A DNA stretch of 64,000 nt from a bacterium (lineage in GTDB: Bacteria; Patescibacteriota; Minisyncoccia; JBBINA01). Positions 20,139-56,543 of the stretch are shown in pieces. Below the pieces are notes generated by a model. It was not told where the DNA came from. It did not search any database and saw only the letters and a program-made list of their open reading frames with translations. The stretch spans positions 13,961 to 77,960 of the forward strand of contig JBBINA010000001.1 of assembly GCA_037444125.1 (NCBI GenBank), given 5' to 3'. The position numbers were made by a program, and so were the translations under genes. How positions within the stretch are numbered: the stretch's first letter is position 1; each line of letters starts with the position of its first letter.

Positions 20139-20172
20139 AAAAGGAGGTAGATCGTCGCCTCCTTATTTTAAT
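20139..20172 (+). terminator. rho-independent terminator (AAGGAGG-N10-CCTCCTT + ATTTTAA)
   Basis: 7-bp stem 28 nt after the GH114 stop. Confidence 0.55.
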
Positions 20173-25410: not shown

Positions 25411-25488
25411 TGCGGTGTTATAAATTTAAGTCCTTGACAAATTTTATTTTAGCTTATATAATTAATAAGTAAATTTTGATTTTATTTA

Positions 25489-31496: not shown

Positions 31497-31648
31497 TTTT
31501 TAGTATTGACATATTAGATTTGATTTGTTAGCATTATAGTGTCTTCTAAATCATCTGCCGGCTAACCTCTTTTTCTGGCTGACCTCCTTTCTAGCTTTAT
31601 AGTTCAGCTAGTTTAGGTGTTCTCCCTCCTTCCCTCTCTTTGTTGGGC

Positions 31649-31680
31649 CCGATACTCCACTCGGGCCCTTTATATTTAAT
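31649..31680. other. GC-rich perfect hairpin GGGCCCGA-N8-TCGGGCCC in the pepA-aspS intergenic region
   Basis: 8-bp all-GC stem in AT-rich DNA; T-tract follows on plus strand, polypurine tract on minus strand. Confidence 0.4.
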
Positions 31681-31682
31681 AG

Positions 31683-33896: not shown

Positions 33897-33970
33897 TCCG
33901 GGATCGTCTAATGGCAGGACGCCACGCTCTGGACGTGGAGATTGGGGTTCGAGTCCCTGTCCCGGAGCCA
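33897..33970 (+). tRNA. tRNA-Gln (anticodon CUG), CCA-encoded
   Basis: cloverleaf folded by hand: acceptor TCCGGGA/TCCCGGA with U1:A72 typical of bacterial tRNA-Gln, D stem GTCT/GGAC, anticodon stem CCACG/CGTGG, loop CTCTGGA, T arm TGGGG-TTCGAGT-CCCTG, GCCA end. Confidence 0.85.
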
Positions 33971-34042
33971 GAGAATACGATACGAACATGGATTTTTGAG
34001 AAAAGAATTTTTGTTCGCCTTTTGATGGTAGCAGAGTAGTGC

Positions 34043-34098
34043 CCTTGTTTGAATCGAGAAGAATTTTGTTTTATATTTCGGAGGTCGATCTCTAAAAA
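34043..34098. repeat. short repeated hairpin element copy R2 (CCTTGTTT...TTTCGGAGGTCGATCTCTAAAAA)
   Basis: related to copy at 25368-25410; lies between tRNA-Gln and the hsp20 terminator. Confidence 0.4.
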
Positions 34099-34111
34099 CA
34101 TAAAAAAACAT

Positions 34112-34139
34112 AAAAATCCCCGAAAAAAGGGGATTTTTA
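34112..34139. terminator. bidirectional terminator (ATCCCC-gaaaaaa-GGGGAT, flanked by A- and T-tracts)
   Basis: 30 nt downstream of the hsp20 stop on the minus strand. Confidence 0.65.
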
Positions 34140-34167
34140 TGTTTATTATTTTATTATTTGTTTTATT

Positions 34168-34605
34168 TTATTTTGTGTTTTTGATTTTTATTTTAATCTT
34201 GGAAGGTGGCTTGACTGCTAATTTTGGCATTACGATTTTAAGAACGCCTTTATCGTAAGTGGCTTCCGTTGCCTTTTCTTTTACTTCTGTTGGCAATCGT
34301 ACAATTCTTTCAAACGAACTTTTCTTGATTTCTTTTTTCCAGTAGTTTCTTTTCTTTTCTTCTTTTTCTTCATCAGCTTTGCCACTTACTTTTAGAATGC
34401 CGTTTTCAACAGAAATATCAATTTTTTCAGGATCAAAATCGGGGATATTTAATTCAGCCACGACTTCCTTATCAGTTTCATAGAGATTCATTGCTGGCAT
34501 AGCCAAATTTTTGCTTGAAAATACAGGCAGAAACCAGTCGTCATCTTCAAAGAATTTCTCTAAGTCGAAAGGTTGTTTCCATGGGATTAGCGACATATTT
34601 TTCAC
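34168..34605 (-). CDS. Hsp20/alpha-crystallin family small heat-shock protein
   Basis: alpha-crystallin domain, C-term ...GVLKIVMPK; strong SD AAGGAGGTG. Confidence 0.9.
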   Translation of the reverse strand: MKNMSLIPWKQPFDLEKFFEDDDWFLPVFSSKNLAMPAMNLYETDKEVVAELNIPDFDPEKIDISVENGILKVSGKADEEKEEKKRNYWKKEIKKSSFERIVRLPTEVKEKATEATYDKGVLKIVMPKLAVKPPSKIKIKIKNTK

Positions 34606-34708
34606 CTCCTTTCAAACTTATCTAAATAGCTTTTATGCCAAAATTATAAAAAACTTTTACTAAATTTTTAGTCTCTATATTATATTTTAAAATTTTTGAT
34701 GGCTAAAG

Positions 34709-34737
34709 TCAAGAAGAATTTAAAATATCTTCTTGAA
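34709..34737. promoter_or_regulatory. perfect 9-bp inverted repeat TCAAGAAGA-N11-TCTTCTTGA (candidate operator) between divergent hsp20 and cupin genes
   Basis: overlaps a TATAAT-containing putative hsp20 promoter on the minus strand; matches neither CIRCE nor HAIR consensus. Confidence 0.4.
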
Positions 34738-34781
34738 CATTTATAATTTTGTTATGTTAAAATAATTTGTAATCAAATTTT

Positions 34782-35177
34782 ATGAGAGGTTTTATAGCCG
34801 ATATAAAAAAGGAAACATTAATTAATAGTAGTTTTCGTAAGGTTTTATACACAGGTAAAAATAGTCAGCTAGTAATAATGAGTTTAAAACCAAAAGAAGA
34901 AATCGGCATGGAAATATTTTCAAAAAATGATCAGTTTTTTCGCTTCGAAAAGGGTTGGGGTAAATGTATTGATGGCACTATTTATGAAGTTGGAAGTGGT
35001 ATTGCGGTAATAGTTCCTGCGGGAGCTATGCATAATATTATAAATATTTCGGAAAATGAAGAGCTTAAGTTTTATACAATTTATTCTCCTCCTCATCATA
35101 AAGATGGTATTGTAAGAAGCACAAAAGAAGAAACAGAAGCAAGCGAGGCAGAATTTGATGGTATTACCTCGGAATAA
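34782..35177 (+). CDS. cupin domain protein
   Basis: 131 aa; two-His cupin motif region GAMHNIIN. Confidence 0.65.
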   Translation: MRGFIADIKKETLINSSFRKVLYTGKNSQLVIMSLKPKEEIGMEIFSKNDQFFRFEKGWGKCIDGTIYEVGSGIAVIVPAGAMHNIINISENEELKFYTIYSPPHHKDGIVRSTKEETEASEAEFDGITSE

Positions 35178-35462
35178 TGAAGAAAGAACCAAACTTAATT
35201 TAAGAATTTAGGTTTTTAATTGTATTTTTCGCATAAGGTTTTCAGTATCTATTTATTACGGCGGTTTTAGTCTTTTTTGATGATTTTACCTTTTTGGTTA
35301 TTTGACGAAGGTGTAAACCATTTTTGTGGAAACATATTTTTATTTATTTTGTGTTTTCTATTTTGATTATTAATATTTGCTTATTTTTATAACCAAGATT
35401 ATTTATCAAGATTTTGTTTACTTAGAAGAGATTCATGAATTATTTGTTTATTAAGCGTTTTT

Positions 35463-35867
35463 ATGAAAAATAAAGATATTATAAAACAGGAACACAAAGA
35501 AGTTGAAAAAAACTTTATTATATTAAATTTAGGTTTGGGGGAGCGTAATAAATTTATTTTGATAAAAACTCGACAAAGAAATGATGTATGTCAATATTTT
35601 GTCATTGGCGACATTACTCAATACCATCAGCATGTATATCTGTATAATAAAGCAAAAACCAATATCGTAGGTGAAATTTTAGAGACTTGCGGAGGTTTGT
35701 TGGATATCACTAAAACCAAAAATGGCATTATCGGGAGGATTTGGGGTAAAAGCAATGTTTATTACGGATATAAAAAAATCGAACTCGAACGGCTATCTAA
35801 GTTAATAAAGGCGCGTTTGGGTTTTAACGAGCTTGAAATTGAAGAGTCAAAACCATATTCACTTTAG
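35463..35867 (+). CDS. hypothetical protein
   Basis: 134 aa ORF, no motif recognised. Confidence 0.4.
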   Translation: MKNKDIIKQEHKEVEKNFIILNLGLGERNKFILIKTRQRNDVCQYFVIGDITQYHQHVYLYNKAKTNIVGEILETCGGLLDITKTKNGIIGRIWGKSNVYYGYKKIELERLSKLIKARLGFNELEIEESKPYSL

Positions 35868-36040
35868 CGACTTAATTTAATTTCTTATCTTAAAAGATAG
35901 GAAAATAAAAGTTCAGCAGCGTTGATGGTTTTTAAGGTGGTGTTATTTAATGTATTTTGTGTTCTTTTTTGTTTTTTTAAAAAATATTTGATAAATTAGG
36001 CTATGTGTACCCTAAACAGCATTACTAAAGGAGGTAAAAT

Positions 36041-37047
36041 ATGCCTATACGAATTGGTCTGAATGGTTTTGGGCGGACAGCGCGGACTTTTTTTAGAATT
36101 GTAAGCGAAAGTCCATCGGTTGAGCTTGAGGTTGTAGCTATTAATGTAAAAAGTCAAAGCCCAGAGCAAGCAGCTTATTTACTTAAATATGATTCAGTAT
36201 ATGGACGATACTCCAAAGATGTATTGTATAACGATAAAACCATCAAAATAGAAGGTTGCGAAGTTCCGATTCTACAGGTTTCAGACCCGGCAGAAGTTCC
36301 TTGGTTTAAGTTTGATGTAGATATAGTTGTCGAAGCAACTGGGAAGTTTAGATCATTTGATAAAGCAGCTAAACATCTTGCCAGCGGTGGAGTTAAAAAA
36401 GTGCTTATTACTGCGCCGGCAAAAGGCGATATTCCCACTATTGTCTTTGGGGTTAATGACAATATTTATAACAAAAAGAGGTATCATATAATTTCAGCTG
36501 TTTCTTGTACTACTAATTGTTTGGCACCTGTGGCTTTATTTTACATAAAGAGTTTGGAATAAAAAGGGGTTTAATGACTACGGTTCATGCTTATACTGGT
36601 AGTCAAAATTTAGTGGATAGCAGTAACGAAGATATGGTTGAAGGCCGGGCGGCGGCTGTCAATATTATTCCGACAACAACAGGAGCGGCTAGCGTCATAG
36701 GTTTAGTAATCCCGGAACTGAAGGATAAACTTGATGGTATGGCTTTTCGCGTGCCCGTTCCTACAGGATCAGTGATTGACCTAGTAGTGGAATTAGAGAA
36801 GAAGGTTCTTGTTGAAGAGGTTAATAATATTTTTAAGCAATACGCTTTTGGTCAATTTAAGAAAACACTTGGTATTTCTGAGTGGCCATTAGTTTCCTCA
36901 GATTGTATTGGCGATAGCAGATCTGCCATTGTTGATTTAAGCTCAACTAAGATTATTGATGGAGACTTTTTAAAAGTAGTAGCTTTTTATGATAATGAGT
37001 GGGGTTATTCTGCGAGACTTGTTGATATTGCTAAAATGCTTTTATAA
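36041..37047 (+). CDS. gapA: glyceraldehyde-3-phosphate dehydrogenase, interrupted by a 1-nt frameshift near 36535-36545
   Basis: GLNGFGR, SCTTNCLAP then frame switch, then GLMTTVHAYT; two overlapping ORFs 36041..36562 and 36517..37047; strong SD AAAGGAGGT. Confidence 0.85.
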
Positions 37048-37232
37048 AAAATTGGGTAGTAAATTTAATAAATTGACCTGCTGTTTATGAGTTTTATTAG
37101 CGAGGTATAATGATTGCAATCTGGAAGAACAAGACAGCAGGGCAATTTTTAAATACTTTCGTTAAATTAAATACTATATAGTTAAGTCCGTTAAAGTGTA
37201 TTAAAGTAACTACAAAGGAGGGCTGGTTCTTT

Positions 37233-38279
37233 ATGGTAGAAGTAAGTTATAGTAAAGTAAATATGTGGTTTTTTTGCCAAAGAATGTTTTGGTATGTTTA
37301 TGTAAAGAAGCAAAAAATGCCAGCCCCAGTAGCTTTAGTTTTTGGAGATGCTATTCATAGAGCTATTGAGTGGTTATATAAGGGCGATCCGCGTCAGAAA
37401 TTAAAAAGACTTAATAATGGCTATTCGCAGCTTTATTTTAAGTCGGCTGAATCATTTGTTAATTTTTGGAAATTTTTGTGGCGGGAATTTAATAAAGGTA
37501 AAAATGCTAATCCTGCAATACTTGGAACACAGCCTTATGAAATAATTAAGTTTTCAAGTAACAATTCTTACGCTATTAAAGAAGAGTATTATACGTTGCA
37601 AAACTTCGGCTCGTCTTTATTGAGGTATTACTATAATACTCATAGTAAAAAAGGACCTTTTCCGATCGAAGTAGAGAAAACTTTTTGTATTCCTTTAGGA
37701 GCTGTAAGGAGAAGTTTAGAAGGAGTAAGATTGAAAGGCGTTTTTGATCAAATATGGCGCGATCAAAAAGGAAACTATATTTTAGTAGATTTTAAAACCG
37801 GCTGGCGTTTTTATTCAATTCAAGATCCTCAAGCGCAGCTGCCTTTACATAAAGATTTCCAGTTAAGCCTCTATAGTTTAGCTTTTAGATATATTTATAA
37901 AACTGAAGAAAGTTGTATTATTTGGTACCCTTTGCATTACGAGAGAGATAATAAAAATGGCAACATTAATTATTGGAAGCCGGTACCGACTTTTAGAACA
38001 AAATCTGATCACGAACGCGCTTTAGACAGAATTGAAGCTTTTATAAAGGGAATTAATCTGAATTATTTTGAGCGTACGAGCGATCCAAACCGTTGCCGGC
38101 ATTGCTCTTTTTTTAAATCGTGCTGGGGAGAAGAAATTATGGTTACGCGACCTTTAGAAGTTAGCGAATTGCCGACGATTTCTATTAAAGAGCAAATTTA
38201 CAATTTAAAAGAAAAAGTAAGTTGTATGGATCCATTGATTAGCGAGCCACGACTTAAACTCAAACCGCGTCAGTATTAG
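37233..38279 (+). CDS. stand-alone Cas4-like PD-(D/E)XK nuclease with Fe-S cysteines (DUF83/RecB-family)
   Basis: N-term YSKVNMWFFCQRMFWYVYV, GDAIHRAIE, ILVDFKTG (D..K), QLSLYSLAF, C-term CRHCSFFKSC; strong SD. Confidence 0.72.
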   Translation: MVEVSYSKVNMWFFCQRMFWYVYVKKQKMPAPVALVFGDAIHRAIEWLYKGDPRQKLKRLNNGYSQLYFKSAESFVNFWKFLWREFNKGKNANPAILGTQPYEIIKFSSNNSYAIKEEYYTLQNFGSSLLRYYYNTHSKKGPFPIEVEKTFCIPLGAVRRSLEGVRLKGVFDQIWRDQKGNYILVDFKTGWRFYSIQDPQAQLPLHKDFQLSLYSLAFRYIYKTEESCIIWYPLHYERDNKNGNINYWKPVPTFRTKSDHERALDRIEAFIKGINLNYFERTSDPNRCRHCSFFKSCWGEEIMVTRPLEVSELPTISIKEQIYNLKEKVSCMDPLISEPRLKLKPRQY

Positions 38280-38295
38280 TGTAAATATTGGTTGG

Positions 38296-38333
38296 GCCTG
38301 CAAGGATAGTTTTATCTTGCAGGCTGTTTTTAT
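38296..38333 (+). terminator. rho-independent terminator (GCCTGCAAG-N11-CTTGCAGGC + T-tract), followed by a second weaker hairpin+T-tract about 38345-38395
   Basis: seen directly. Confidence 0.7.
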
Positions 38334-38421
38334 AAAACAAAATAGGCCCGTGAAGTTTGATTATTTACGGGTCTTTTATTTCGTTTTTAACTGCTATAAT
38401 ATCTTTTTTATATTTTTGTAA

Positions 38422-39259
38422 GTGAATACATATTTTAAAATAAGTTTAAAAATTTTTTTCATTGTTGGCGGTTTATTTTTTGGTTTTGTAGGTGAGTTTA
38501 GTACAGGACAATTGGTTCATTTGTCATCAGACTTTGATTTAGAAGTTGTTTCTTTCATCACTTCTCAAAATACTCGTCGAGTTGTTCGAAATCAGGACAA
38601 AAAGATATACGGCGCAATTGTGCTGCATCGTTTATTAGCTAAACCAATTATTACCGAAATCTTGAACGAAGTAGCGCAAATTTTTAAATTGCAGAAATGA
38701 ACACCTAATCAGGTTATACTCTTTTCTCCGAATCATTTTTTAACTGGAAAGTATCCTATAATTGGCACAAGCTTTGATTGGAAGACAAAATTTGGCATTG
38801 TTCAAAGCGACAAAATTGAGACTGCTGTTTTTGGTTTAACTATTAAGCGTGAGTATCTCGATTTGAAAAATAAGCCTATAGAAGAGTTTTCTGCCGGTGA
38901 TTTAGTAAAGATAAAATTGATCGTTAATTCCCGTAATAATGAAAAATTAATTTACATTATTATCGAGGATTTCTTACCATCTAGTTTTGCTCCTCAAAAT
39001 CCGCGATTAGAGAACGGGAGTGAACGAGAACGTCGGTGGTGGGGGTACGAAATGGATATAAGAGATGAACGTGTGGTTTTTTGTGGACAATCTTTGGAAT
39101 GACATACATATATTTGACTATATAGCGCGCGTCAACTTTAGAGGCGAGTTTGAGGTGTCAGCTCCGCAGGTTCAAATGATGTATGTGCCTACAAATTATG
39201 GCTTTGGTAGTGCTAAAAAAAATGATTATAAATTAAATTTTTTCAATTGGGTTTTTTGA
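38422..39259 (+). pseudogene. C-terminal remnant of an alpha-2-macroglobulin family protein (A2M receptor-binding/MG10-like region)
   Basis: IIEDFLPSSFAPQNPRLEN matches the A2M C-terminal LPAGxExEN motif; in-frame TGA at 38698-38700, frameshift in T6 run 39077-39082; the N-terminal >1000 aa expected for A2M are absent. Confidence 0.5.
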
Positions 39260-39368
39260 GGTTGGGGCTTCAAAAATTATTTCATAACAGTCATATTGAC
39301 AGAAGTAATTTTATACATTAAAATATAGATAGAGCTCACTAAAACAAATTTATAAAGGAGTGATAGTG

Positions 39369-40583
39369 ATGAAGAGGTTTGTATGCTTGGTCGGTTTGCT
39401 CCCGTTTTTTGCTGGCATTAGCGCGGCGGCGCAGGTTCCGTGGGTTTTTGAGCGTCCGGGATTTGGCGGCGGACTTGATGTGAATATAATTAAATCCGGG
39501 CAATTCGTTGAAATCAGAACTACCCATGAAGCATTTCTTTGTGTTTATGGATTTTCGCTTGACCAAAAGATTATTGATTATAATGACCAGGTACCTGTGG
39601 CGGTATTAAGATACGCTGGATCTAAAACATTATTAAATCCTAAAAACGCAGTTTGGCTGCAAGTTATTGCTGTAAAGACTAGTCCAGTTTTTGAATGTGA
39701 TTCGCAACACTTAAGTTTCTTTAGAACACCTAATGAACTTAGTGATTGGATGCAGGTTTTAGCTAGAAGCATTCAAGAGTATGGCGTTTCTCTGTGGGCG
39801 GCTAGATTTATTTATTTAGGATCTGCGCAAGGTGAAGGAGCAAAAATTCAAGGAGCAGTGGAAAATCAAAACCCGACGCCCCTTGTTACTTGGAAGCCAC
39901 AGATTCCTTTTGTGGGCCAAGAAGTTATTTTCGATGCTTCTAATTCGTATGATTCAGATGGTGGGATTATTTGGGTAGGTTGGGATTTTGGTGATGATGG
40001 CATTTTTGATACTACTGGAACAAGCTTAAGCGTTAGTTTTCGTTTTCAATCTGCTGGTTATCAAAAAGTTAGGTTGACCTTAAAAGATAATCGCGGCGGG
40101 CAAGCTAGTACAGTTTTAACACTAAGGGTAAACCCCCTAAGAGCTGAGGAAGTTTTCAGTTATACGATTAATGCTGAGTGTGTAATTATTGATAGCGGCG
40201 GCGCCAAAGAATATGTCCTAGTAGAAAGCAAATATTATTCATTTAATGCCGGTTCTTCCAGTTTTCGAAGTATCGGTTGGGATTTTAATTTGGATGGACG
40301 AAATGACAGCCAGGCTGTGGCTATTATGTCTTTCCCTAAGGGAGTGCGGTATATTGCTATTAACGGTATAAATAGTACAGGTGAATATCGAGGCGAGCAG
40401 ATTAAGTTAAAGGTTGTCACCGTTTCAGAACTTTCGGTTTATTGTAGGGTAGATAAGATTTATCAACCACCCAGCAAACCATCAAAAACCCCTGTCCCCA
40501 TTAATTTTAAGACAATTGTGGCCGTTTTTATGGTTCTGCAAGTAGTAGGCATTGTTATTTGGGGAATTATTAATAAGAGTTAA
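39369..40583 (+). CDS. cell-surface PKD-domain protein with signal peptide and C-terminal TM anchor
   Basis: signal peptide, PKD motif FDASNSYDSDGGI..VGWDFGDDG, C-terminal hydrophobic anchor; SD AAGGAG 8 nt before ATG 39369. Confidence 0.7.
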   Translation: MKRFVCLVGLLPFFAGISAAAQVPWVFERPGFGGGLDVNIIKSGQFVEIRTTHEAFLCVYGFSLDQKIIDYNDQVPVAVLRYAGSKTLLNPKNAVWLQVIAVKTSPVFECDSQHLSFFRTPNELSDWMQVLARSIQEYGVSLWAARFIYLGSAQGEGAKIQGAVENQNPTPLVTWKPQIPFVGQEVIFDASNSYDSDGGIIWVGWDFGDDGIFDTTGTSLSVSFRFQSAGYQKVRLTLKDNRGGQASTVLTLRVNPLRAEEVFSYTINAECVIIDSGGAKEYVLVESKYYSFNAGSSSFRSIGWDFNLDGRNDSQAVAIMSFPKGVRYIAINGINSTGEYRGEQIKLKVVTVSELSVYCRVDKIYQPPSKPSKTPVPINFKTIVAVFMVLQVVGIVIWGIINKS

Positions 40584-40608
40584 GTTAAATATTTAGTTTG
40601 TAGCTTGA

Positions 40609-40640
40609 CGGAAGGAGTAGTTGTCCTTCCGTTTTTTGTT
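40609..40640 (+). terminator. rho-independent terminator (CGGAAGGA-N8-TCCTTCCG + T6)
   Basis: seen directly. Confidence 0.7.
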
Positions 40641-40647
40641 TACCCTC

Positions 40648-40675
40648 TTGACATTTTTATATGGTATGCTAGAAT
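40648..40675 (+). promoter_or_regulatory. sigma70-type promoter TTGACA-16-TAGAAT with TG extended -10
   Basis: seen directly; drives a ~150-nt leader ending in a hairpin/T-tract before CDS 40841. Confidence 0.55.
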
Positions 40676-40840
40676 AAAAACGTGAAAGTCCGAACCAACT
40701 CGATTATATTATAAAGATTTAGGTTTAAGGTGGTATTAGCAGGACGAGCGTTCGAACTTTTTTATTTTGTTCTCTGAAATTGGAATCTCGGGTGGCAATC
40801 CAAACAAACACAAATCAATCTTAAGGAGGATTGATAACCC

Positions 40841-41155
40841 ATGGCTCGAAAAACTGTTCAGCCCGGAGCTGTTCGTCAGACAATGACTTTGGAGGAGCCG
40901 ATTACTGTGGTTCAGTTGTCAGAAATCGACTCCGTAGGTTACTATGTTAACACGCAAACTGGTCTTGGTTTGCGGGTTGACAAGAATCTTCTTCAAGCCC
41001 TGAACATCGGCGGCCATGCTTTCGGACGTTTTGAGGCTAGCCCCGAAAATCAGGGATTGCTGCAGTTTGCCAAAATCAGTGGGGATCCGTTTATCCCCAG
41101 CGACGAAGCGGCTTTGCGCGCCGCTCGCGCTAGTCTGCCGGTCGCCTTCCAGTAG
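40841..41155 (+). CDS. hypothetical 104-aa protein in a compositionally foreign (~52% GC) gene
   Basis: strong SD AAGGAGG-10-ATG, GC-rich codons, followed by two terminators (GCGGGCT-t-AGCCCGC; CCCCAGCTTG-gtaca-CAAGCTGGGG+T5 at 41213-41245). Confidence 0.6.
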   Translation: MARKTVQPGAVRQTMTLEEPITVVQLSEIDSVGYYVNTQTGLGLRVDKNLLQALNIGGHAFGRFEASPENQGLLQFAKISGDPFIPSDEAALRAARASLPVAFQ

Positions 41156-41323
41156 TAAAATAGCGGGCTTAGCCCGCATCGTTTAGTCAAAAGCGCCACC
41201 CGAGGTTTCTTGCCCCAGCTTGGTACACAAGCTGGGGTTTTTCTTTATTCTAGAAAACTTGCGTCCTTAATATATTAGGTTTAGAATATTAGAGTTAGAA
41301 ATAAATTATAATTAATTTTACTT

Positions 41324-41686
41324 ATGGTTAATAAAATTTTTCTCGCCTCGGGAATTTTGGTTATTGTTATAATAGTTATAATAATTGTAGTAATTTTTAT
41401 GATAAAACAAAAAACTGAGAAATCGAATAGTTTTAGTAATTTGCCTATGGCAAATAAGGTAGTTGATTTTGCAGCCAAAGAATTAAAAGTTGGCCCCAAA
41501 GAAATTACGATCATTGAAATAAAAGAAGCCGAATGGCCTGATGCTTGTCTCGGCTTAGTAAAAGCCGGCGAGTTTTGTGCTCAAGTTATAACGCCGGGTT
41601 ATAGTGTCCTACTTCGCGCAAGGTCTATAGAGTATCGTTATCGTACAGATAAAGAGGGCATAGTTATTATTCAAGATACAAGATAA
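41324..41686 (+). CDS. hypothetical membrane-anchored protein
   Basis: N-terminal TM helix then ~80-aa domain with 2 Cys. Confidence 0.45.
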   Translation: MVNKIFLASGILVIVIIVIIIVVIFMIKQKTEKSNSFSNLPMANKVVDFAAKELKVGPKEITIIEIKEAEWPDACLGLVKAGEFCAQVITPGYSVLLRARSIEYRYRTDKEGIVIIQDTR

Positions 41687-41735
41687 ATAATAAGGCTAAT
41701 TAAAATTCTTTTGCCTTTTGCTTAACATATGTCTA

Positions 41736-41764
41736 TTGACATATTTATCTTTATGTGTTAATAT
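41736..41764 (+). promoter_or_regulatory. sigma70-type promoter TTGACA-17-TAATAT
   Basis: seen directly, ~50 nt upstream of ATG 41816. Confidence 0.5.
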
Positions 41765-41815
41765 ATATAAGTTAAGGTTGTTCATTAAAAAACAAGATTT
41801 AAAGAGGTGAAAGCA

Positions 41816-42229
41816 ATGGCGCGATATCGACAGAAGTTTACGCCTGAGTGTGTTGACAGTTGGTGGGAGGCCCTTGATGATTATCCGGAGACTATGCGGT
41901 TTCTGTGGGCTGTTATTAATCATTATAATTGCGGCGATATAGAAGATGCAGTTGATACATTTAAAAGAAATTTTGGTTTAAAACACTTTAGCCACAATGA
42001 TTTTGAGTTTTTGATGAGCGGTAGGTTGCCAGCACATATTGATACGCGGCTTAATCTTGATACCATTCCTAGCAACAGATGGAATCCCGAACGAGAGGCA
42101 ATGCACGAGTTTATAGCCGAAAAATTGTGTGAAGTTCTGTCAGAAACTTTTCGGTCGCCTTGCAGCGAGAAAGAACGAGAGCGCTGGAAGGTTCTTAGAA
42201 GACTTTGGATAGCGTTTTTAAAGTTATAG
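41816..42229 (+). CDS. hypothetical protein (elevated GC ~43%)
   Basis: 137 aa from the ATG preceded by AAGAGGTG. Confidence 0.5.
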   Translation: MARYRQKFTPECVDSWWEALDDYPETMRFLWAVINHYNCGDIEDAVDTFKRNFGLKHFSHNDFEFLMSGRLPAHIDTRLNLDTIPSNRWNPEREAMHEFIAEKLCEVLSETFRSPCSEKERERWKVLRRLWIAFLKL

Positions 42230-42267
42230 AAATGGTCGTAGGAATGAAACCTTAAAGGAGGTTTCAA

Positions 42268-42762
42268 ATGGCAAAAATTGTTCTTGTAATTGGGATGATA
42301 TGTGGTTTTCTTGCGATTATATTTTTTTGGCAAGGCGGAGTTTTTGAACAGGATCGAGAACTTCGATTTAACTTTAACTTGCCGACAAATTTTGAGGTTT
42401 TCGAGCCAACTTCTGTGAGGTCGCATACTATGACTGATATACCTTTGGAAGAAGAGGCATTTTGGGAAAAATCTCAAAATAAATTAGTATTCGTTATTTA
42501 CCAACCGCGGTGTAGCAAGGATGATTTATGGTTTTTGGAATATGCGTTTTACGAGGGAAGCGTCCGGTTTTACACAAGAAAAGAAATTGTTTTAAGTTCT
42601 ATTTGGTGTCAGAATTTTGGATTTGTGCCAAAATTAGATAAAGGTGTTTTGATTTTTAGCCAAGAGCGGGTTGAATATTTTGTTTATTTCCTCGGGGTGG
42701 TTTTCTTGGTTGTTTTCGTAGTATTTGCTTCGATAGTGTTACTGGTACCATTGTTGGGCTAG
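42268..42762 (+). CDS. hypothetical membrane protein
   Basis: N- and C-terminal TM helices; strong SD AAAGGAGGT; followed by terminator GGCCTGTCC-N14-GGACAGGCC+T5 (42772-42808). Confidence 0.5.
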   Translation: MAKIVLVIGMICGFLAIIFFWQGGVFEQDRELRFNFNLPTNFEVFEPTSVRSHTMTDIPLEEEAFWEKSQNKLVFVIYQPRCSKDDLWFLEYAFYEGSVRFYTRKEIVLSSIWCQNFGFVPKLDKGVLIFSQERVEYFVYFLGVVFLVVFVVFASIVLLVPLLG

Positions 42763-42832
42763 TTGTCTAGTGGCCTGTCCGCAGTTGATTTTGTGGACAG
42801 GCCTTTTTAATATTTTAAAAACCAGATTAAAA

Positions 42833-43749
42833 TCAATCGGCGAAAATAGCTAAAACTAGCGGCACGGCGATTAGCGAAAAAATCGTTGAAGTAAGTATAG
42901 CCATACTTACTGCTTTTGTGTCAAGATTAAATCTTTGTGCTATGACGAATGTGGTTACTGCTGTTGGCATAGAGGATAAAAGCAGAGGAATCCTAATATC
43001 CGGAGTTCTAAAGACAAATAGGGCAATTAAGACTGTTATAAAGGGAAATAAAAGCATTTTGGTTATACTTATTATTAAGATTAAACTCATATTTTTTGTT
43101 TGAAATTTGCCGTATAAAAACTACCCAACAAAAAAAGGGCTAGTGGCGAGGCGGTTTGGCCGAGCATATTAAGGGTTTTTTGGAAGGCTTGTTCTAATTG
43201 AGTATCTGTTTTGACGAAACTTAAGACGGCGCCAATTGCAATCGAAATAACCAGCGGATTCTTGGCAAATTCAAATACTTCGTTTTGAATATTATTTTGA
43301 TGTTTATCGTGCCAGTAGTAAATGACAAATATTGAAGTCAAAATTGGAATTACCAAATAAAGATTGCCGATAATAGCGGCTGTGGGTAGGTGATTTTTCC
43401 CGAATCCAAATTCAACCAGCGGAAAGCCCATATAGATTGTATTGCCGGTAATGGCAGCAAGAAATAGGGCAGATTTGAGACTGTTTTTAATTTTAGCAAT
43501 TGATAGGACAAAAAAAACAATAAGTGAAAAAACAAAAAGCGTTATTAAGCCAAAAACAAAATGCCGATGAAGATTTGTGTCGGTTAGGTTAAGGTTCCAT
43601 AAGCTGACTATTACTAGTGCTGGAAGCGAAACATAATAGGCAAAAATATTTAAAATATGGACCCAGGAGTTGTCGGCAAGTTTAAGTTTTCGAAAGAGCC
43701 AGCCGGCGAAAATTATAAGAAATAGAGGCAGAGAAATAAAAAATGGCAT
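42833..43749 (-). CDS. auxin efflux carrier (AEC) family transporter, split by a 1-nt frameshift in the central loop
   Basis: ORFs 43087..43749 and 42833..43090 overlap in ATGA; they fuse if the A6/T6 run at 43093-43098 is one nt longer; two 5-TM halves typical of the AEC/Mem_trans family. Confidence 0.7.
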
Positions 43750-43853: not shown

Positions 43854-44411
43854 ATGAAGAGAATATATTTTGGGGTTATAGCCGTAACTATTTTAATCAG
43901 CTTGGCAGCTGTTTTAAATATTAATCGAAAGTTTTCCCAAACAGATTTAATTTCTAAAAATAATAATATGAAAATTTCAAGCCCGGTTTTTTTAAATAGC
44001 GAAACCATACCGGCAAAATATACTTGCGATGGCGAAAATGTTAATCCTCCTCTCCTAATTGAAGGAGCGCCGCTTGAAGCTAAAAGTCTAGTTTTAATTG
44101 TTGATGATCCGGATGCGCCTATGGGGACTTGGACCCATTGGACTGTTTGGAATATAAATCCAGACACGAGAGAAATTTCAGAAAACAGCGTTCCTCCGGG
44201 CGCAGTTCAGGGAAAAACAAGTTTTGGAAAACCAGGTTATGGCGGACCATGCCCGCCTTCGGGAACACATCGTTATTTTTTTAGAGTATACGCTCTAGAT
44301 AAATTGTTAGATTTGAGTTCAACGGCTACTATTAATGATATTAAAAGAGCCATGCAAAATCATATATTAGATAGTGGCGAATTTTTTGGCATCTACTCGC
44401 GCAAAAAATAA
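43854..44411 (+). CDS. YbhB/YbcL (PEBP/Raf-kinase-inhibitor-like) family protein with signal peptide
   Basis: DPDAP...WTHW motif. Confidence 0.85.
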   Translation: MKRIYFGVIAVTILISLAAVLNINRKFSQTDLISKNNNMKISSPVFLNSETIPAKYTCDGENVNPPLLIEGAPLEAKSLVLIVDDPDAPMGTWTHWTVWNINPDTREISENSVPPGAVQGKTSFGKPGYGGPCPPSGTHRYFFRVYALDKLLDLSSTATINDIKRAMQNHILDSGEFFGIYSRKK

Positions 44412-44482
44412 AAAAATTGATATATATTTTACAACCTGCTATAATGATAAAAATAGGATTTAATACCTAAATAAAAAAATAT

Positions 44483-46258
44483 ATGAAGCGTTTATTTGGA
44501 ATATTAAGCACAGTGCTTTTATTAATTGCAGTCGCAAAAGTGGTTTTTGCTGGTAATGATCTCCAACCAGTTGAGTTTGCGACTGGACGTATTATTCTAA
44601 AGTTCAAAAATAATGTTGGCCTAGGTGAGCAAATATCTTTATTCAAAAAACTTGGCTTAGAAAAAATCGACATTTTTAAAAAATTGGACTATCAGCTTAT
44701 GAAAGTAAAGCCCGGCAGTGAACAGAATTTAATTGCGCAATTGAGAGATAATCCTTTAGTTGATAAAGTTGAGCTTGACGGAGTTGTTAGAGTATTTATG
44801 ACAACAAATGATCCTTTAATTTCGCAGCAGTGGGGTCTTTTTAAAGCCAAATTTGCTGATCCAGGTACAAGTGCCTGGGATATTAATAAAGGTAGTACAT
44901 CTATTAAAATTGCTATTTTAGATACAGGGATAGATCAAAATCATGAAGATTTAGTGAGCAAGATTGTGGTAAATAAGAATTTTACCACCAGTTCAACTGT
45001 TGATGATTTATATGGTCATGGCACTCATGTGGCGGGTATTGCCGCGGCAGTAATTAATAATAATATTGGCGTGGCCGGTTCTGGTTATAATTCAGTACTA
45101 ATGAATGTTAAGGTATTGGATGATCGTGGCTCTGGTTATTACTCATGGGTGGCTAATGGTATTATCTGGGCTGTTGATAATGGCGCTAAGGTGATTAATA
45201 TGAGTTTGGGCGGTTCAATGGCTTCGTCAATTTTGGAGGATGCTATTAATTATGCCTGGAGTAAGGGTGCGGTAGTAGTGGCAGCAGCGGGTAATGATGG
45301 TTCTGATGCTCCCAGTTACCCAGCTTATTATACTAATGCGATTGCCGTTGCCGCTACAGATAGTAGTGATTTGAAAACTAGTTGGTCAAATTATGGTAGT
45401 TGGGTTGATGTGGCTGCGCCAGGTTCTTCGATTTATTCAACTTTACCTAATCATAGCAATCGAATTGGCAAAAGAAACTATGGCTCACTTTCAGGTACTT
45501 CTATGGCTGCGCCTTATGTGGCAGGCTTGGCTGGATTAGTTTGGGCGAGTGGTTTATGTTCGAATAATACTTGCGTAAGGAATCAAATAGAATCGACCAG
45601 TGATTCAGTTCCTGGTACTGGATTATATTGGACCTATGGTCGTATTAATGCACTTAATGCTTTAGGTGGAGTTAGTCTGCCTCAGCATTATGCCCTTGAA
45701 GTATTCAAAAATGGCAATGGCAATGGTAGTGTTATAAGCGAACCCTTAGGTATTGATTGTGGCGGTGATTGCGTGGAAGAATATTTGGGAGTAACAGTTG
45801 TCAGCTTGACCGCCATAGCTGATAGCGATTCAGTTTTTGTTGGATGGTCTGGTGATTGTACAGGTACAGAAAATGTATGTGTTTTGGTTTTAGATTCAAA
45901 TAGCCAAGTTAAAGCTACATTCAACAACATAAATTCGCCAAGTCCAACGAGTATGGTTGTGCAGTCAGTTGACTATGTTAAATACGGTGGTCGTCAAAAT
46001 AACCGGAATATAGATATCATCATTTCTGTGGTAGATAATTTAGGTGGCCCGTTAGAAGGTGCAGCTCTTTCAATACTTTTAACCAATACTACTTGGGGCA
46101 TTAGTTGGAGCGGTAAAGGTACAACGAATAGTAATGGGAAGGTAACTTTTACCTTAAAAAACGCGTTTTCGGGTTGTTATGTTGTAACCGTGACTGAATT
46201 AGTTAAATCTGGTTTATCATGGGATAACATTACGCCACCTAACGGTGTTTGCAAGTAA
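44483..46258 (+). CDS. secreted subtilisin-like serine protease (S8) with C-terminal extension
   Basis: signal peptide, I9-like propeptide, catalytic triad motifs ILDTGID, HGTHVAG, GTSMAAPYVAG. Confidence 0.92.
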   Translation: MKRLFGILSTVLLLIAVAKVVFAGNDLQPVEFATGRIILKFKNNVGLGEQISLFKKLGLEKIDIFKKLDYQLMKVKPGSEQNLIAQLRDNPLVDKVELDGVVRVFMTTNDPLISQQWGLFKAKFADPGTSAWDINKGSTSIKIAILDTGIDQNHEDLVSKIVVNKNFTTSSTVDDLYGHGTHVAGIAAAVINNNIGVAGSGYNSVLMNVKVLDDRGSGYYSWVANGIIWAVDNGAKVINMSLGGSMASSILEDAINYAWSKGAVVVAAAGNDGSDAPSYPAYYTNAIAVAATDSSDLKTSWSNYGSWVDVAAPGSSIYSTLPNHSNRIGKRNYGSLSGTSMAAPYVAGLAGLVWASGLCSNNTCVRNQIESTSDSVPGTGLYWTYGRINALNALGGVSLPQHYALEVFKNGNGNGSVISEPLGIDCGGDCVEEYLGVTVVSLTAIADSDSVFVGWSGDCTGTENVCVLVLDSNSQVKATFNNINSPSPTSMVVQSVDYVKYGGRQNNRNIDIIISVVDNLGGPLEGAALSILLTNTTWGISWSGKGTTNSNGKVTFTLKNAFSGCYVVTVTELVKSGLSWDNITPPNGVCK

Positions 46259-46307
46259 AAATTTTCCAAGATTGCTTTAAACAGGTATTTATTATATTAT
46301 TGTTTTT

Positions 46308-46697
46308 ATGAAGATTTTATTTACTGTCTTATTGTCAATTATTTATCTCTTGTTTGCAATTTTTGGTTTAGCTATACAAAGTTTCGATAATACACATCAT
46401 CTAGCAGGGAGGTGTTTGTCTGTAATTATTAATGGCTATGGTTGTCCTAACCCAACTGATGATTATGGTTCGGCTAATTTCCATATTAAGGCTTTTAAGA
46501 CATTTTCAATGGGTTTCGTGGATGATTGGGGCTTTGAAAATGTAAAGTTGGCTTTTTTTATCATATTAGTTTTTGTGTTTTTAGTAAGCGCTAGTAGATT
46601 TTTTCAAAAATTTGTTTCCACGGCATTATTTATCTATAATTTAACTTTCCTATCCTGGTTATCTTTATTTCGGCTTAGTCCAACTTTAAAGCATTGA
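46308..46697 (+). CDS. hypothetical membrane protein
   Basis: 129 aa, hydrophobic N and C segments. Confidence 0.35.
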   Translation: MKILFTVLLSIIYLLFAIFGLAIQSFDNTHHLAGRCLSVIINGYGCPNPTDDYGSANFHIKAFKTFSMGFVDDWGFENVKLAFFIILVFVFLVSASRFFQKFVSTALFIYNLTFLSWLSLFRLSPTLKH

Positions 46698-46779
46698 TCA
46701 GGGAAACCTAGTTGTTAGGTTGTCTTCTGGTCAATAAAGACCTTTTTAGAAAGGTTTTTTTAACTTTTGAGCTAATTTT

Positions 46780-47280
46780 ATGAATAAACTAAAAAATGTA
46801 GGATTGTATATAGCCTGTATCGGATTGCTTATTACGTTTTTATTGTGGTTGGGCAAGCCAGGCGAATCAGTTGATTCGGGGCAAGTAAATAAAAATCCCA
46901 CCGAGGTATTCCAAACAAATGAGCGAGAATTTGATTTTGGCACAATTTCTATGGCTAAAGGTAAGGTTAGGCACACTTTTGTATTAACGAATAAGACTGC
47001 CAGCGATATTATCCTTAAGAAAATATATACTTCTTGTATGTGTACTACAGCTTTTTATGTAAGTAATCGTAAGCGATATGGACCTTTTGGTATGCCTGGC
47101 CATGGTTTGACTCCAAGCATTAATGAGCAAATTGAATCAGGTCAATCTTTTAATCTTGAAGTGGAGTTTGATCCAGCGGCTCATGGCTCGGCTGGAATTG
47201 GAGCTGTTAAGAGAATAGTTTATCTTGAAACAGTGGCAGGAAGGCAAGAGATAGTGGTTCGGGCCATAGTTACACCTTAG
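46780..47280 (+). CDS. DUF1573 domain protein
   Basis: N-terminal anchor; FDFGTI...V.H.F.LTN...IILKKIYTSCMCTT pattern typical of DUF1573. Confidence 0.65.
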   Translation: MNKLKNVGLYIACIGLLITFLLWLGKPGESVDSGQVNKNPTEVFQTNEREFDFGTISMAKGKVRHTFVLTNKTASDIILKKIYTSCMCTTAFYVSNRKRYGPFGMPGHGLTPSINEQIESGQSFNLEVEFDPAAHGSAGIGAVKRIVYLETVAGRQEIVVRAIVTP

Positions 47281-47335
47281 TTATGAGTAATGTTTTATAT
47301 TTTATGCGTTCCATTTTAAAATTTAACCTGTATTT

Positions 47336-48214
47336 ATGAAAGATAAATTTCTAATCATAAGATTGATTTTAGCCGCGGTAGTTATTGTTACCGTTAGTAT
47401 AGCGGTGAAAAATTCAATTCTTAAATCAAGTAAAGTGAATACCAGTGATACTTTATCTTTAGAGCAACAGGATAAGGTTTTGCCTTTAGAGGGCGTTGTT
47501 TTGCCAATTTCTTGGCGCGATCTTGGGAAGAAATTAGTAGATAGCGGCACTATTGATTTGGAAAAATTCCAGGCGCTTTATAAAACAAGCGGAGAACAAG
47601 AGGAATTAATTAAAAAACTTCTTACTCAATCATTTGATGAAGCTTTAGTGATGACTCAAAACAATTCGGGCGTCTTGCTGAATATACTCTGGGCTTTTGG
47701 TTTAGCGAATAAAAATAGAATTCTTGAAGAGGGGCCAATTATGGATTCTAAATACGGCGGTGCCGGCAGGTTTGCTTCTACGGGCGGTTGGACTTTAGCC
47801 AAAGGTAACCCAATGAATCATTATTCTAAACATAGGTTTATAGTTTTGACCGAACAACAACAAGAGTTAGTTGAGAGAGTTTCAAAAAATATTTATCGAC
47901 CGTGCTGTAGCAATGCAACGTATTTCCCAGATTGTAATCATGGTATGGCAATGTTGGGACTGCTTGAGTTAATGGCGGCAAATAATGTTGCTGAAGACAA
48001 AATCTATCAAATAGCTTTAAAAGTTAATTCTTATTGGTTTCCTTCGACTTATTTAACTCTTAGTAAATATTTCGAAAGTAAAGGAATTGCTTGGGATAAT
48101 ATTGATCCTAAAGAAGTGCTTGGTTATAATTTCTCAAGTGCTGCAGGTTATCAGCGTGTGTTGGCCGAGATTGAACCGGTTAGAGAACAGGGTGGAGGAA
48201 GTTGTGGGGTTTAA
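47336..48214 (+). CDS. hypothetical secreted cysteine-rich protein
   Basis: N-terminal anchor; RPCCSNATYFPDCNHG cluster, C-terminal GGGSCGV. Confidence 0.5.
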   Translation: MKDKFLIIRLILAAVVIVTVSIAVKNSILKSSKVNTSDTLSLEQQDKVLPLEGVVLPISWRDLGKKLVDSGTIDLEKFQALYKTSGEQEELIKKLLTQSFDEALVMTQNNSGVLLNILWAFGLANKNRILEEGPIMDSKYGGAGRFASTGGWTLAKGNPMNHYSKHRFIVLTEQQQELVERVSKNIYRPCCSNATYFPDCNHGMAMLGLLELMAANNVAEDKIYQIALKVNSYWFPSTYLTLSKYFESKGIAWDNIDPKEVLGYNFSSAAGYQRVLAEIEPVREQGGGSCGV

Positions 48215-48257
48215 ACATTCATTGTAATCTTAAATATTTTTAACTATAATTAAACTT

Positions 48258-49055
48258 ATGAGCATCGATAAATTTAAAATAAGGACTGGCTTTATAGTTG
48301 GTCTAGGAATTATTTTTATTCTTTTTTTTCTTGTTCTTAAATATAATAATTCGACAACTCAAACTTTATGGAACTTGAGTCAAGGAGGTAAATGGTTATT
48401 GCCTTTGGTTTTAACTTCAGCAGTTATTGATAGTGTTAATCCTTGTGCTATTTCAGTATTATTGTTAACTGTTGCCTTTCTTTTTAGCATTGGTAGGTTA
48501 AGAGCCAATATTTTGCGTGTGGGTAGTTCCTATATTTTGGGGTTATTAATTGTTTATGTATTGATTGGTTTAGGGATTTTGCAGGCGCTTCATTTTTTTA
48601 ACACACCCAACTTTATGGCTAAACTGGGGGCGATGTTGCTTATTGTTTTAGGTGTGATTAACTTAATTAATCACTATATACCTAGTTTCCCTATCAAACT
48701 TAAAATTCCAGTAGCTTCTCATAAGACAATGGGTATTTTGATGGAAAAAGCGTCGATTCCAACCGCTTTTTTGTTGGGCGGTTTAGTTGGATTATGCGAA
48801 TTTCCCTGCACCGGCGGACCTTATCTTATGGTTTTGGGTTTACTACATGATAAAGTGACTTATTACAAAGGTCTTGTTTATCTTATAATCTATAATTTGA
48901 TTTTTATTACGCCGTTAGTCATTATTCTGCTGCTAGCAAGCGATAAGATAGTGCTTGATAAATTGGCTCAATGGAAAAAAGAAAAAACAGGTATGCTTAA
49001 GTTAATCAGCGGTATTGCGATGATTTTTTTAGGGATTTTGATTTTTCTCATTTAA
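48258..49055 (+). CDS. CcdA/DsbD-like thiol-disulfide transporter (cytochrome c biogenesis DsbD_2 family)
   Basis: polytopic; conserved Cys motifs NPCA and FPCTGGPY. Confidence 0.72.
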   Translation: MSIDKFKIRTGFIVGLGIIFILFFLVLKYNNSTTQTLWNLSQGGKWLLPLVLTSAVIDSVNPCAISVLLLTVAFLFSIGRLRANILRVGSSYILGLLIVYVLIGLGILQALHFFNTPNFMAKLGAMLLIVLGVINLINHYIPSFPIKLKIPVASHKTMGILMEKASIPTAFLLGGLVGLCEFPCTGGPYLMVLGLLHDKVTYYKGLVYLIIYNLIFITPLVIILLLASDKIVLDKLAQWKKEKTGMLKLISGIAMIFLGILIFLI

Positions 49056-49101
49056 CCATTTACTTGAAGATTGTTAACTAATTAATAAATAAGCAAATTT
49101 T

Positions 49102-49608: not shown

Positions 49609-49664
49609 ATAAAAAATATAAAGTTAATTGGTAGTTAAAAACATGAATTGAAATTAGACGAATT

Positions 49665-50921: not shown

Positions 50922-50923
50922 TT

Positions 50924-53401: not shown

Positions 53402-53442
53402 TAGATAGAGAATGATTATAGCTTTAATTTGACTAGGATAAA

Positions 53443-53922: not shown

Positions 53923-54080
53923 GGATTTAGTCCAAAAACTTTAATTTAATTAGCCAGAGAATTTCAGTATAAAAACAGGACAACTTCAACTTGATATCTA
54001 ATTTGCATTTGGTTTTTGAAATGGTAAAATTATTAGTAATACAGTATTAAGAAAATAGGATTTAATTTGTAATTTTTTCT

Positions 54081-56509: not shown

Positions 56510-56543
56510 ATTTTATTTTTAATATTTTAAATATTTAAATATT

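Follow-up and report, generated by a model that had tools for sequence, protein, structure and literature searches.

Shine-Dalgarno-led, apparently foreign gene cassettes in a probable plasticity zone behind a tRNA-Gln gene of a bacterium with otherwise Shine-Dalgarno-less genes

The interval that follows a tRNA-Gln gene was analysed in a 64,000-nt stretch of contig JBBINA010000001.1 (assembly GCA_037444125.1), which is termed the window below and to which all coordinates refer unless another contig is named. The window had a GC content of about 34% and a steady positive GC skew, and nearly all of its genes were on the plus strand. A preliminary description of this DNA had proposed that a tRNA-adjacent island of about 9 kb, whose genes carry Shine-Dalgarno (SD) sites not recognised in the surrounding backbone, was acquired horizontally. 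The tRNA-Gln(CUG) gene at 33897-33970 (plus strand) was confirmed by ARAGORN and by the Rfam tRNA model (55.8 bits) and forms the left anchor of the interval; the first feature after it, the terminator of an hsp20 gene, begins at 34106. Small, self-contained transcription units follow one another along the interval; most of the SD-led ones have a strong terminator and several a near-consensus promoter. The interval is also a mosaic, in that SD-led cassettes alternate with SD-less, backbone-like genes (a cupin-domain gene, o35463 and o41324) and with an alpha-2-macroglobulin (A2M) remnant. The spacers had a median length of 179 nt in this zone versus 55 nt in the backbone (p = 0.02).

The first unit, the hsp20 cassette (34106-34611, minus strand), contains a 142-aa coding sequence (CDS) at 34168-34596 with its ATG at 34596, the SD AAGGAGG at 34605-34611 and a bidirectional terminator hairpin at 34106-34144, and its product matched Pfam HSP20 at 2.6e-18. 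All further units up to the right flank lie on the plus strand. The cupin-domain gene (34782-35177) matched Pfam Cupin_2 below the cutoff and PHROG 13536 at 4e-24, and had a backbone-like codon use. The open reading frame (ORF) o35463 (35463-35867) encodes a 134-aa orphan behind a backbone-type leader, with no match in Pfam, PHROG or PADLOC. A pseudogene of type I glyceraldehyde-3-phosphate dehydrogenase (GAPDH, gapA) follows at 36028-37047, with AAGGAGG at 36028-36034 and the ATG at 36041. Next to it lies the cassette of a Cas4-like PD-(D/E)XK nuclease (37215-38333; SD at 37215-37221, CDS at 37233-38279), which ends in a GC hairpin with a T-run at about 38296-38333, and then the A2M-like remnant o38422 (38422-39259), which has no SD and gave bMG10 matches in two frames.

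The PKD surface-protein cassette (39296-40633) comprises a TTGACA-17-TAAAAT promoter at 39296-39324, the SD AAGGAG, a CDS at 39369-40583 and a terminator at 40607-40633; the protein has a signal peptide, a PKD domain (PKD_4, 4e-12) and a C-terminal transmembrane (TM) segment, and its GC fraction is 0.40. The o40841 cassette (40648-41238) starts with a TTGACA-16-TAGAAT promoter (with TG) at 40648-40675, which is followed by a 165-nt leader, an SD at 40823-40829, a 104-aa CDS at 40841-41155 and terminators at 41163-41177 and 41212-41238. The next gene, o41324 (41324-41686; 120 aa, N-terminal TM segment), has no SD and shares the leader type and codon use of the backbone. The last unit, o41816-o42268 (41736-42803), has a TTGACA-17-TAATAT promoter at 41736-41764. 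Its first gene has the SD AAGAGGTGA and a CDS at 41816-42229 (137 aa), and its second gene has the SD AAGGAGG at 42255-42261 and a CDS at 42268-42762 (164 aa, with a TM segment at each end). The GC-rich, 13-bp terminator of this unit at 42772-42803 is the right end of the SD-led DNA. On the right flank, a transporter of the AEC family (Pfam Mem_trans; 42833-43749, minus strand) is split into ORFs of 220 and 85 aa and has no SD, and the PEBP (43854) and subtilisin (44483) genes beyond it are likewise SD-less.

The SD contrast between this interval and the backbone was evaluated by duplex scoring. The 30 nt upstream were listed for 56 ORFs and 54 ORFs were scored, of which 11 belonged to the interval (33.9-42.8 kb, from the tRNA to 42.8 kb) and 43 to the backbone. 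Every in-frame start within the first 60 nt of an ORF was considered and the best duplex with the anti-SD (ACCUCCUUU) was taken as the score of that ORF, a value of -7 kcal/mol or lower denoting a strong SD. This free choice of start was made so that the scoring was biased against the hypothesis. A strong SD was found for 7 of the 11 interval genes and for none of the 43 backbone genes (Fisher p = 1.9e-6; Mann-Whitney p = 0.003). The duplex energies were -13.2 kcal/mol for hsp20, -13.0 for gapA, -12.4 for o42268, -12.3 for the Cas4-like gene, -11.1 for o40841, -8.3 for the PKD gene and -7.1 for o41816, and hence five of the seven were at -11 to -13 kcal/mol. The motif AAGGAGG occurred 14 times in the window; all five copies inside the interval sit 6-11 nt ahead of the first ATG of a long ORF, whereas none of the nine outside precedes the first start of an ORF. 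Moreover, in an annotation-free scan of all start codons with at least 50 codons after them, the combination of a strong SD with a first-start ATG was confined to the interval, and the matches outside were internal TTG or GTG codons.

The backbone leaders were A/T-rich, with 15% GC over positions -20 to -1 and with neither a purine tract nor an SD; a T stood at -1 in 23 of 31 genes, and positions -3 to -10 were A-rich. This picture of mostly SD-less genes with A/U-rich leaders, as in lineages of the SD-blind type, was shared by the core genes of two relatives (contigs L011 and L014). The claim that the SD use of the interval is unlike that of the backbone was therefore borne out, both by the scoring and by the annotation-free scan. 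The wording that nearly every gene in the interval has an SD was too broad, since the cupin gene (34782), o35463, the A2M remnant o38422 and o41324 have backbone-type leaders and no SD.

Several SD-like motifs were also observed elsewhere. At 20141-20164, just past the gene at 18906-20111, a perfect AAGGAGG...CCTCCTT inverted repeat with a T-rich tail is probably a terminator hairpin and not a pair of SDs. Two motifs outside the interval have no gene, at 15883-15905 and 13770 (both minus strand). The former, AAGGAGGTAAAATTGTAA, is identical to the gapA start in both SD and spacer, yet it runs directly into a stop codon, and the AAGGAGG at 13770 adjoins a GNAT acetyltransferase remnant. Both may be relics of other decayed imports. 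About 3 kb past the 3' end of the window, a 183-aa ORF with no Pfam match (L021 19424-19975) starts with GGCGAGGTGATTTT-ATG at -8.3 kcal/mol; it is an isolated SD-led accessory gene among SD-less neighbours.

The composition of the interval was two-tiered, with a left part that resembled the backbone and only the right third clearly foreign, which points to at least two age or donor classes. The ORF o40841 had 53.0% GC, so that the ORF described earlier with 52% GC was recovered; its GC content at third codon positions (GC3) was 0.53 (z = +9.3 versus the backbone) and its codon likelihood gave z = -5.4. It is the most clearly foreign piece of the interval. The GC3 of o41816 (z = +4.3) and o42268 (z = +2.3) was also raised. 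The hsp20 gene was atypical in codon use only (likelihood z = -2.7) and had a host-like GC content. The composition of gapA, the Cas4-like gene, the cupin gene, o35463 and o41324 did not differ from that of the backbone. Hence, the expected deviation in GC and codon use was present for four genes (o40841, o41816, o42268 and hsp20) and absent for these five.

The canonical GC-stem terminators named in the preliminary description were recovered. When only hairpins with a stem of 10 bp or more, including 5 or more GC pairs, were counted as strong terminators, four were found in the interval (34106, 40607, 41212 and 42772) and none in the backbone stretches 1-20000 and 44001-64000. The promoter claim held in part. 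Sites of the form TTGACA-N16-18-TANNNT occurred seven times in the window, and the three in the interval each lie 45-165 nt ahead of an SD-led gene. A general excess of sigma-70-like promoters in the interval was rejected (65 seen versus 60 expected from shuffles), and promoter-like sites also precede backbone genes (for example at 25434 and 44417). Since both the backbone and the cassettes have sigma-70-type promoters, their transcription signals are compatible, and the translation signal alone differs. As a separate observation, a 31-nt tandem duplication (2.1 copies) at 25439-25503 spans a TTGACA...TATAAT promoter-like site just upstream of the gene at 25489.

The ancestry of the SD-led genes was explored in most depth for gapA. 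Its translation contains the catalytic SCTTNC motif and both domains of type I GAPDH, in differing frames: Gp_dh_N was found in 36041-36562 and Gp_dh_C in 36517-37047 (Pfam). No single intact frame spans them. The break is a 1-nt frameshift near 36535-36545, between ...CLAPVA and ILHKEFGI..., and it also occurs in a second assembly (Logan, run SRR11582170), so that the frameshift reported earlier is upheld by two concurring assemblies. The reconstructed 335-aa GAPDH was 67-70% identical over its full length to a tight clade of 330-aa proteins. Other Acetothermia followed at 58-60%, and cyanobacteria, Thermomicrobium and others at 51-55%. The named members of the top clusters were Candidatus Bipolaricaulota/Acetothermia, and in a neighbour-joining tree the window GAPDH was the long-branched sister of the 67-70% clade within the wider Acetothermia group. 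The best outside matches of backbone proteins were much lower in contrast, at 47% or less for pepA and 59% or less for DnaK. At the level of protein sequence, gapA was thus shown to be of the Bipolaricaulota type, with the nearest relative at only 70% and no close donor sampled. The taxonomic affinity of the interval proteins was established to this extent; for the six proteins that were looked up, no relative at 90% identity or higher was found among about 15 billion proteins.

The genomic context of gapA was examined in two Bipolaricaulota lineages. There, the gene is surrounded by a conserved set of housekeeping genes at 57-58% GC, and about half of the genes, gapA among them, have a strong SD. 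The window copy resembles these genes in its protein identity and in the AGGAGG-type SD before the gene. It differs in being frameshifted, in its GC content (38% versus about 57%) and in its context, since the Bipolaricaulota gene is placed in a pdxST-uma2-gapA...dnaG-rpoD arrangement and the window gene stands alone among unrelated genes. Slow amelioration of gapA is made less likely by its 38% GC combined with a perfect SD in a gene that has since become a pseudogene. The combination points either to a low-GC donor or to a long period as a functional resident gene whose SD was under selection.

The Cas4-like protein matched PDDEXK_1 at 1e-16, PADLOC Cas4 models at 5e-9 and a PHROG exonuclease, and reached 22.5 bits for Pfam Cas_Cas4, just under the cutoff of 22.7. 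Read from the translation, cysteines at C15 and in a C-x2-C-x5-C motif near residue 290 accompany the nuclease core, as expected for an Fe-S cluster. No repeat array was found in the 64 kb and no cas genes among the neighbours, and the gene is best called a putative standalone Cas4-like nuclease. The A2M remnant was recognised by bMG10 pieces in two frames within 38863-39259, in agreement with the earlier suggestion. According to the three-frame translation, an N-terminal hydrophobic segment is fused in frame to the MG10 C-terminal domain, and the 38422 ORF and the MG10 fragments belong to one common frame that is interrupted by an in-frame stop at 38698-38700 and a frameshift near 39065-39100. 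The usual architecture of bacterial A2M, with at least about 1500 aa, multiple MG domains and a thioester domain, is absent, the MG10 C-terminal domain alone being detectable within 840 nt. The remnant is a native-style gene that was mostly deleted and is now a stub. For o40841, no homolog was found in Pfam, PHROGs, PADLOC, GenBank phages, PLSDB plasmids or JGI metagenomes, its AlphaFold2 model without alignment was not usable (pLDDT 40), and its leader fold was unremarkable.

The possibility that the interval is a single integrative island or prophage remnant, inserted site-specifically in the 3' end of the tRNA-Gln gene with later loss of integrase and att sites, was weighed on gene content and on the junctions. 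The region adjoins a tRNA gene, and three of its products (the Cas4-like protein, hsp20 and the cupin protein) match PHROG families. These matches were limited to a generic hsp20, an exonuclease and a cupin family of unknown function. Among the ORFs of the interval, no integrase, recombinase, transposase or other mobility gene was found with Pfam, PHROGs and PADLOC, and no excisionase, phage structural, packaging, lysis or conjugation gene with Pfam and PHROGs. The Cas4-like protein had no match in IMG/VR, GenBank phages or JGI metagenomes, and o40841 had none in GenBank phages, so that the features of a prophage were not found. The 22-nt and 14-nt forms of the tRNA 3' end were single-copy in the 64 kb, even with 3 or 2 mismatches, respectively, and no bounding repeat was present. 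The earlier statement that integrase and att duplication are missing therefore agrees with these scans of the interval ORFs and with the 64-kb repeat search. SD-led and SD-less genes are interleaved and the composition is two-tiered, a pattern that does not fit a single imported block and does fit repeated small insertions into a tolerant region.

The junction was compared with that of the sole known relatives. Five of their contigs, from five sequencing runs and three lineages, retain the order tRNA-Gln, M50, pepA, asnS, dnaE, and all five stop 0-24 nt past the same tRNA-Gln gene. The identity of their pepA to the window copy was 74% for L011-13, 55% for L014 and 76% for L020. The contig L014 stops 1 nt past the 3' end of the tRNA gene, L020 exactly there, and L011, L012 and L013, from three samples, stop 24 nt past it at the identical base. 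About 22-24 nt after the tRNA align between the window and L011, and the left edge of the variable DNA is accordingly put at about 33,992. The identical stop 24 nt past the tRNA in L011-13 does not come from tRNA k-mers shared between species and indicates alternative continuations in the population. These observations support the tRNA-Gln junction as a variable point in the clade, where the contig breaks mark the branch point and not what lies beyond it. Breaks at the tRNA 3' end are also what a duplication of attL and attR, or a mixed population of occupied and empty sites, would give in a de Bruijn graph. With the missing mobility genes and repeats and the interleaved content taken together, a single site-specific island is considered unlikely.

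The relative L011 provided a second view of SD-led genes. Its six core genes are SD-less, and three ORFs that are absent at the corresponding window positions carry strong SDs: ins1 (7463-7804), ins2 (8040-8447, 48% GC) and ins3 (10065-10535, minus strand), in the regions 7310-8640 and 10065-10550. They are placed between dnaE and a zinc-finger gene and between a 274-aa gene and clpB. In addition, ins1 and ins2 are accompanied by a TTGACA promoter and by hairpins rich in GC. None of the three matched Pfam, and ins2 showed no homology to o40841. On the basis of these inserts and of the SD-led orphan 3 kb past the window, the rule that an SD-led gene is an accessory gene appears to hold for the clade and not just at this locus.

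Because the contig is metagenomic and the translation signals of the interval differ sharply from those of its flanks, DNA of an SD-using organism might have been mis-joined into it during assembly or binning. The Logan assembly of SRR11582170 contained the same 20.7 kb over both junctions with 3 SNPs and 0 indels, although the two assemblies may share reads. The interval includes SD-less, backbone-like genes and is enclosed by backbone on either side, so that many separate mis-joins would be required, and its left two-thirds have backbone GC and codon use. A chimera is extremely improbable on these grounds. The three SNPs between the window and the Logan assembly are at 42698, 36566 and 25316; two lie in the interval, and one alters o42268 (P0126 versus P0127). 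Some strain heterogeneity in the sample is suggested by them.

It was also considered whether the region is native and a few genes keep an SD as a regulatory device, for example by being translated only by ribosomes with an exposed anti-SD, as for rpsU in Flavobacteriia. Among the SDs, that of the stress gene hsp20 is the strongest, and gapA and the Cas4-like gene combine native-like codon use with perfect SDs. Moreover, according to the portions of two papers that were drawn on, Bacteroidia ribosomes without bS21 translate the SD-bearing rpsU at a higher rate (PMC13000453, PMC9976891). The SD-led set of the window, however, contains the gapA pseudogene as well as orphans whose codon use is foreign and whose GC content is 42-53%, and gapA is of the Bipolaricaulota type. 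The SD-led ORFs of L011 are absent at the corresponding window positions and are not conserved genes. An RNA thermometer in the hsp20 leader was likewise rejected, the fold being no better than shuffles (z = 0.43). A native regulatory set is hence a rather remote explanation.

The stretch at about 33.99-42.83 kb is probably a plasticity zone after tRNA-Gln(CUG) that has accumulated foreign expression cassettes. Good support for a foreign origin of the SD-led genes comes from the SD contrast, the affinity of gapA, the atypical GC3 and codon use, the absence of relatives at 90% identity or higher and the SD-accessory pattern of L011. The proposed horizontal acquisition thus stood for these genes, but the integration of one 9-kb block at the tRNA gene was not supported, in view of the interleaving, the two-tiered composition and the lack of integrase and att sites. 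At least five foreign cassettes may have entered the zone at different times from SD-using bacteria, namely hsp20, gapA, the Cas4-like nuclease, the PKD surface protein, o40841 and o41816-o42268. Most of them would have brought their own signals: a promoter of the sigma-70 type, an SD of the AAGGAGG type and an intrinsic terminator rich in GC. From the mosaic structure we infer a piecemeal arrival, which would have proceeded by illegitimate or homology-assisted recombination after DNA uptake and not by a tRNA-targeting integrase.

The host's own genes initiate translation from A/U-rich, SD-less leaders. The SD motifs of the zone would be the translation signals of the donors, retained either because the host ribosome still pairs with them or because they are too young to have eroded. 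Most bacterial 16S rRNAs keep a free anti-SD, and most bacterial ribosomes pair with the SD. If the anti-SD of the host 16S rRNA is free, the imports could be translated by ordinary SD pairing, with the native mRNAs using unstructured A/U-rich leaders. Under the alternative of an SD-blind ribosome, as in Bacteroidia (PMC7797042, PMC13000453), translation of the imports would be weak and they would tend to decay. In lineages of the Bacteroidia type, the anti-SD persists in the 16S rRNA and is sequestered by bS21, bS18 and bS6. That the host ribosome is SD-blind or has no usable anti-SD, which would make the SD-led imports a separate translational class, is doubtful. If it were so, the imports would be silent, a translational barrier that would explain the decay of gapA, or they would be translated only when the anti-SD is exposed. 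In that case, hsp20 could be the prototype of a stress-specific, SD-dependent regulon, and SD motifs in this unstudied deep lineage would at once mark recent gene transfer in general and act as a regulatory switch.

Several points weigh against an accumulation of recent foreign cassettes. The arrival of the DNA is not explained by any integrase, transposase, att repeat or other mobility gene. The nearest relative of gapA is only 70% identical, and the gene may have descended vertically from a Bipolaricaulota-related ancestor. The codon use and GC content of gapA and the Cas4-like gene are backbone-like, as would be expected of genes from low-GC donors or of old residents with selected SDs, and an old residence weakens a recent import for these two. 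For the SD-less genes of the zone, an import from SD-less relatives is conceivable. Furthermore, the contig breaks of the relatives do not amount to an absence of the interval genes, and breaks exactly at the tRNA end (L014 and L020) can come from k-mers common to co-assembled species. The right boundary is drawn solely from signals within the window.

The host is a rare, deep-branching, uncultivated bacterial lineage with a reduced genome. Its pepA had just three relatives (76%, 74% and 55% identity) among 5.8 billion protein clusters, all other matches being at 47% or less, and the top match of DnaK in a search of 1.8 billion representatives was 59%. Against the contigs of 185,579 species genomes, pepA gave only matches of 35-41% from unrelated phyla and no synteny partner. 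The backbone genes of the window include grpE-dnaK-dnaJ, dnaX, glyS, metG, clpB, the PEBP and subtilisin genes, a glycerate 2-kinase gene, ppsA, rpiB and eno, with dnaE, asnS/aspS, pepA and an M50 protease gene on the minus strand. Enzyme kinds typical of archaea were observed in the backbone at 6097-7506, 20725-22026 and 49665-50921: glyS is of the dimeric type (PRK04173), a PHP protein belongs to the TIGR00375/MJ0043 family, and the glycerate 2-kinase is nearest to Thermoplasma/Thermoproteus models. These fit a reduced, deep-branching bacterium without placing the lineage. In the window, an Rfam scan gave no rRNA gene, and Pfam and NCBIfam scans that covered most ORFs gave no rpsU, rpsR or rpsF. 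The gene calls of a further 4.8 kb of the contig, where no rRNA scan was run, included no gene of the translation apparatus. The Rfam scan of the window at gathering threshold returned tRNA only, and E-value scans of the interval and the asnS leader gave sub-threshold matches only.

Several backbone genes are pseudogenes or split genes, and gene decay is therefore not specific to the interval. The GNAT acetyltransferase remnant (about 13780-14005, within 13358-14533, minus strand) lies in two frames and a PelF-like GT4 glycosyltransferase gene (15975-17452) in three pieces. An 87-aa fragment resembling EF-Tu domain 2 was found at 54081-54344, and a split PHO4 transporter gene is located just past the window (L021 17050-17966). 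A long leader between pepA and asnS/aspS is conserved in the clade (window 31497-31682, minus strand; L011 2316-2674; L020 2271-2498). In L011 and L020, it contains a GC-rich stem (CCCGCCGG...CCGGCGGG) around a GAAAGGAGGTT motif. Conserved TTTAGAAGA and TAATATGTCAA come next, immediately ahead of the start codon, and the window copy has two AAGGAGG motifs. This leader, which matched no Rfam family and does not correspond to a T-box, could represent a cis-regulatory RNA not recognised before, with an SD-like sequence that is conserved even though the lineage is SD-less.

The zone is otherwise ordinary, with small accessory and surface proteins, orphans and pseudogenes, and its value lies in being a clean natural case in which translation-initiation signals reveal foreign ancestry. 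Methods based on composition would miss most of it, because the GC content of gapA, the Cas4-like gene and hsp20 is host-like. An SD scan in SD-less lineages could be an additional, composition-independent detector of horizontal gene transfer and a probe of the expression of imports. The locus is a further data point for gene flow into a very poorly sampled lineage with reduced genomes, including an import of central metabolism (gapA, of the Bipolaricaulota type) that is now decaying.

Three known systems were compared with this zone. In Bacteroidia (Flavobacterium johnsoniae), the consulted parts of the literature describe a genome-wide absence of SDs, A/U-rich leaders and few genes with a strong SD (PMC7797042, PMC6847099, PMC13000453), and in these respects the present lineage, with its handful of strong-SD genes, is similar. 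The SD gene there is the conserved, autoregulatory core gene rpsU, whereas here the SD genes form a cluster of accessory genes, some of which are decayed and some of foreign composition.

With tRNA-associated genomic islands and integrative elements of the pathogenicity-island type, the zone shares its position 3' of a tRNA gene, an accessory and partly atypical cargo, pseudogenes and a junction that seems to vary in related populations. It differs from them in that no tyrosine or serine integrase, tRNA 3' repeat or mobility gene was found and in that its content is interleaved with native-style genes and does not form one element. The third comparison is with the hypervariable 'flexible' islands without integrase of streamlined genomes, such as those near the tRNA genes of Prochlorococcus, which were reportedly described by Coleman and colleagues in 2006. 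Like the zone analysed here, these belong to a small low-GC genome and are tRNA-anchored variable regions with strain-specific accessory and surface-protein genes and no evident mobility apparatus. In the present case, one genome was available and the hypervariability is deduced from contig breaks, and the foreign genes can be recognised by their translation signal, a feature not described for those islands. The zone belongs to the known class of integrase-less plasticity zones at tRNA genes, and what is unusual about it is the legible SD marker of its SD-led genes.

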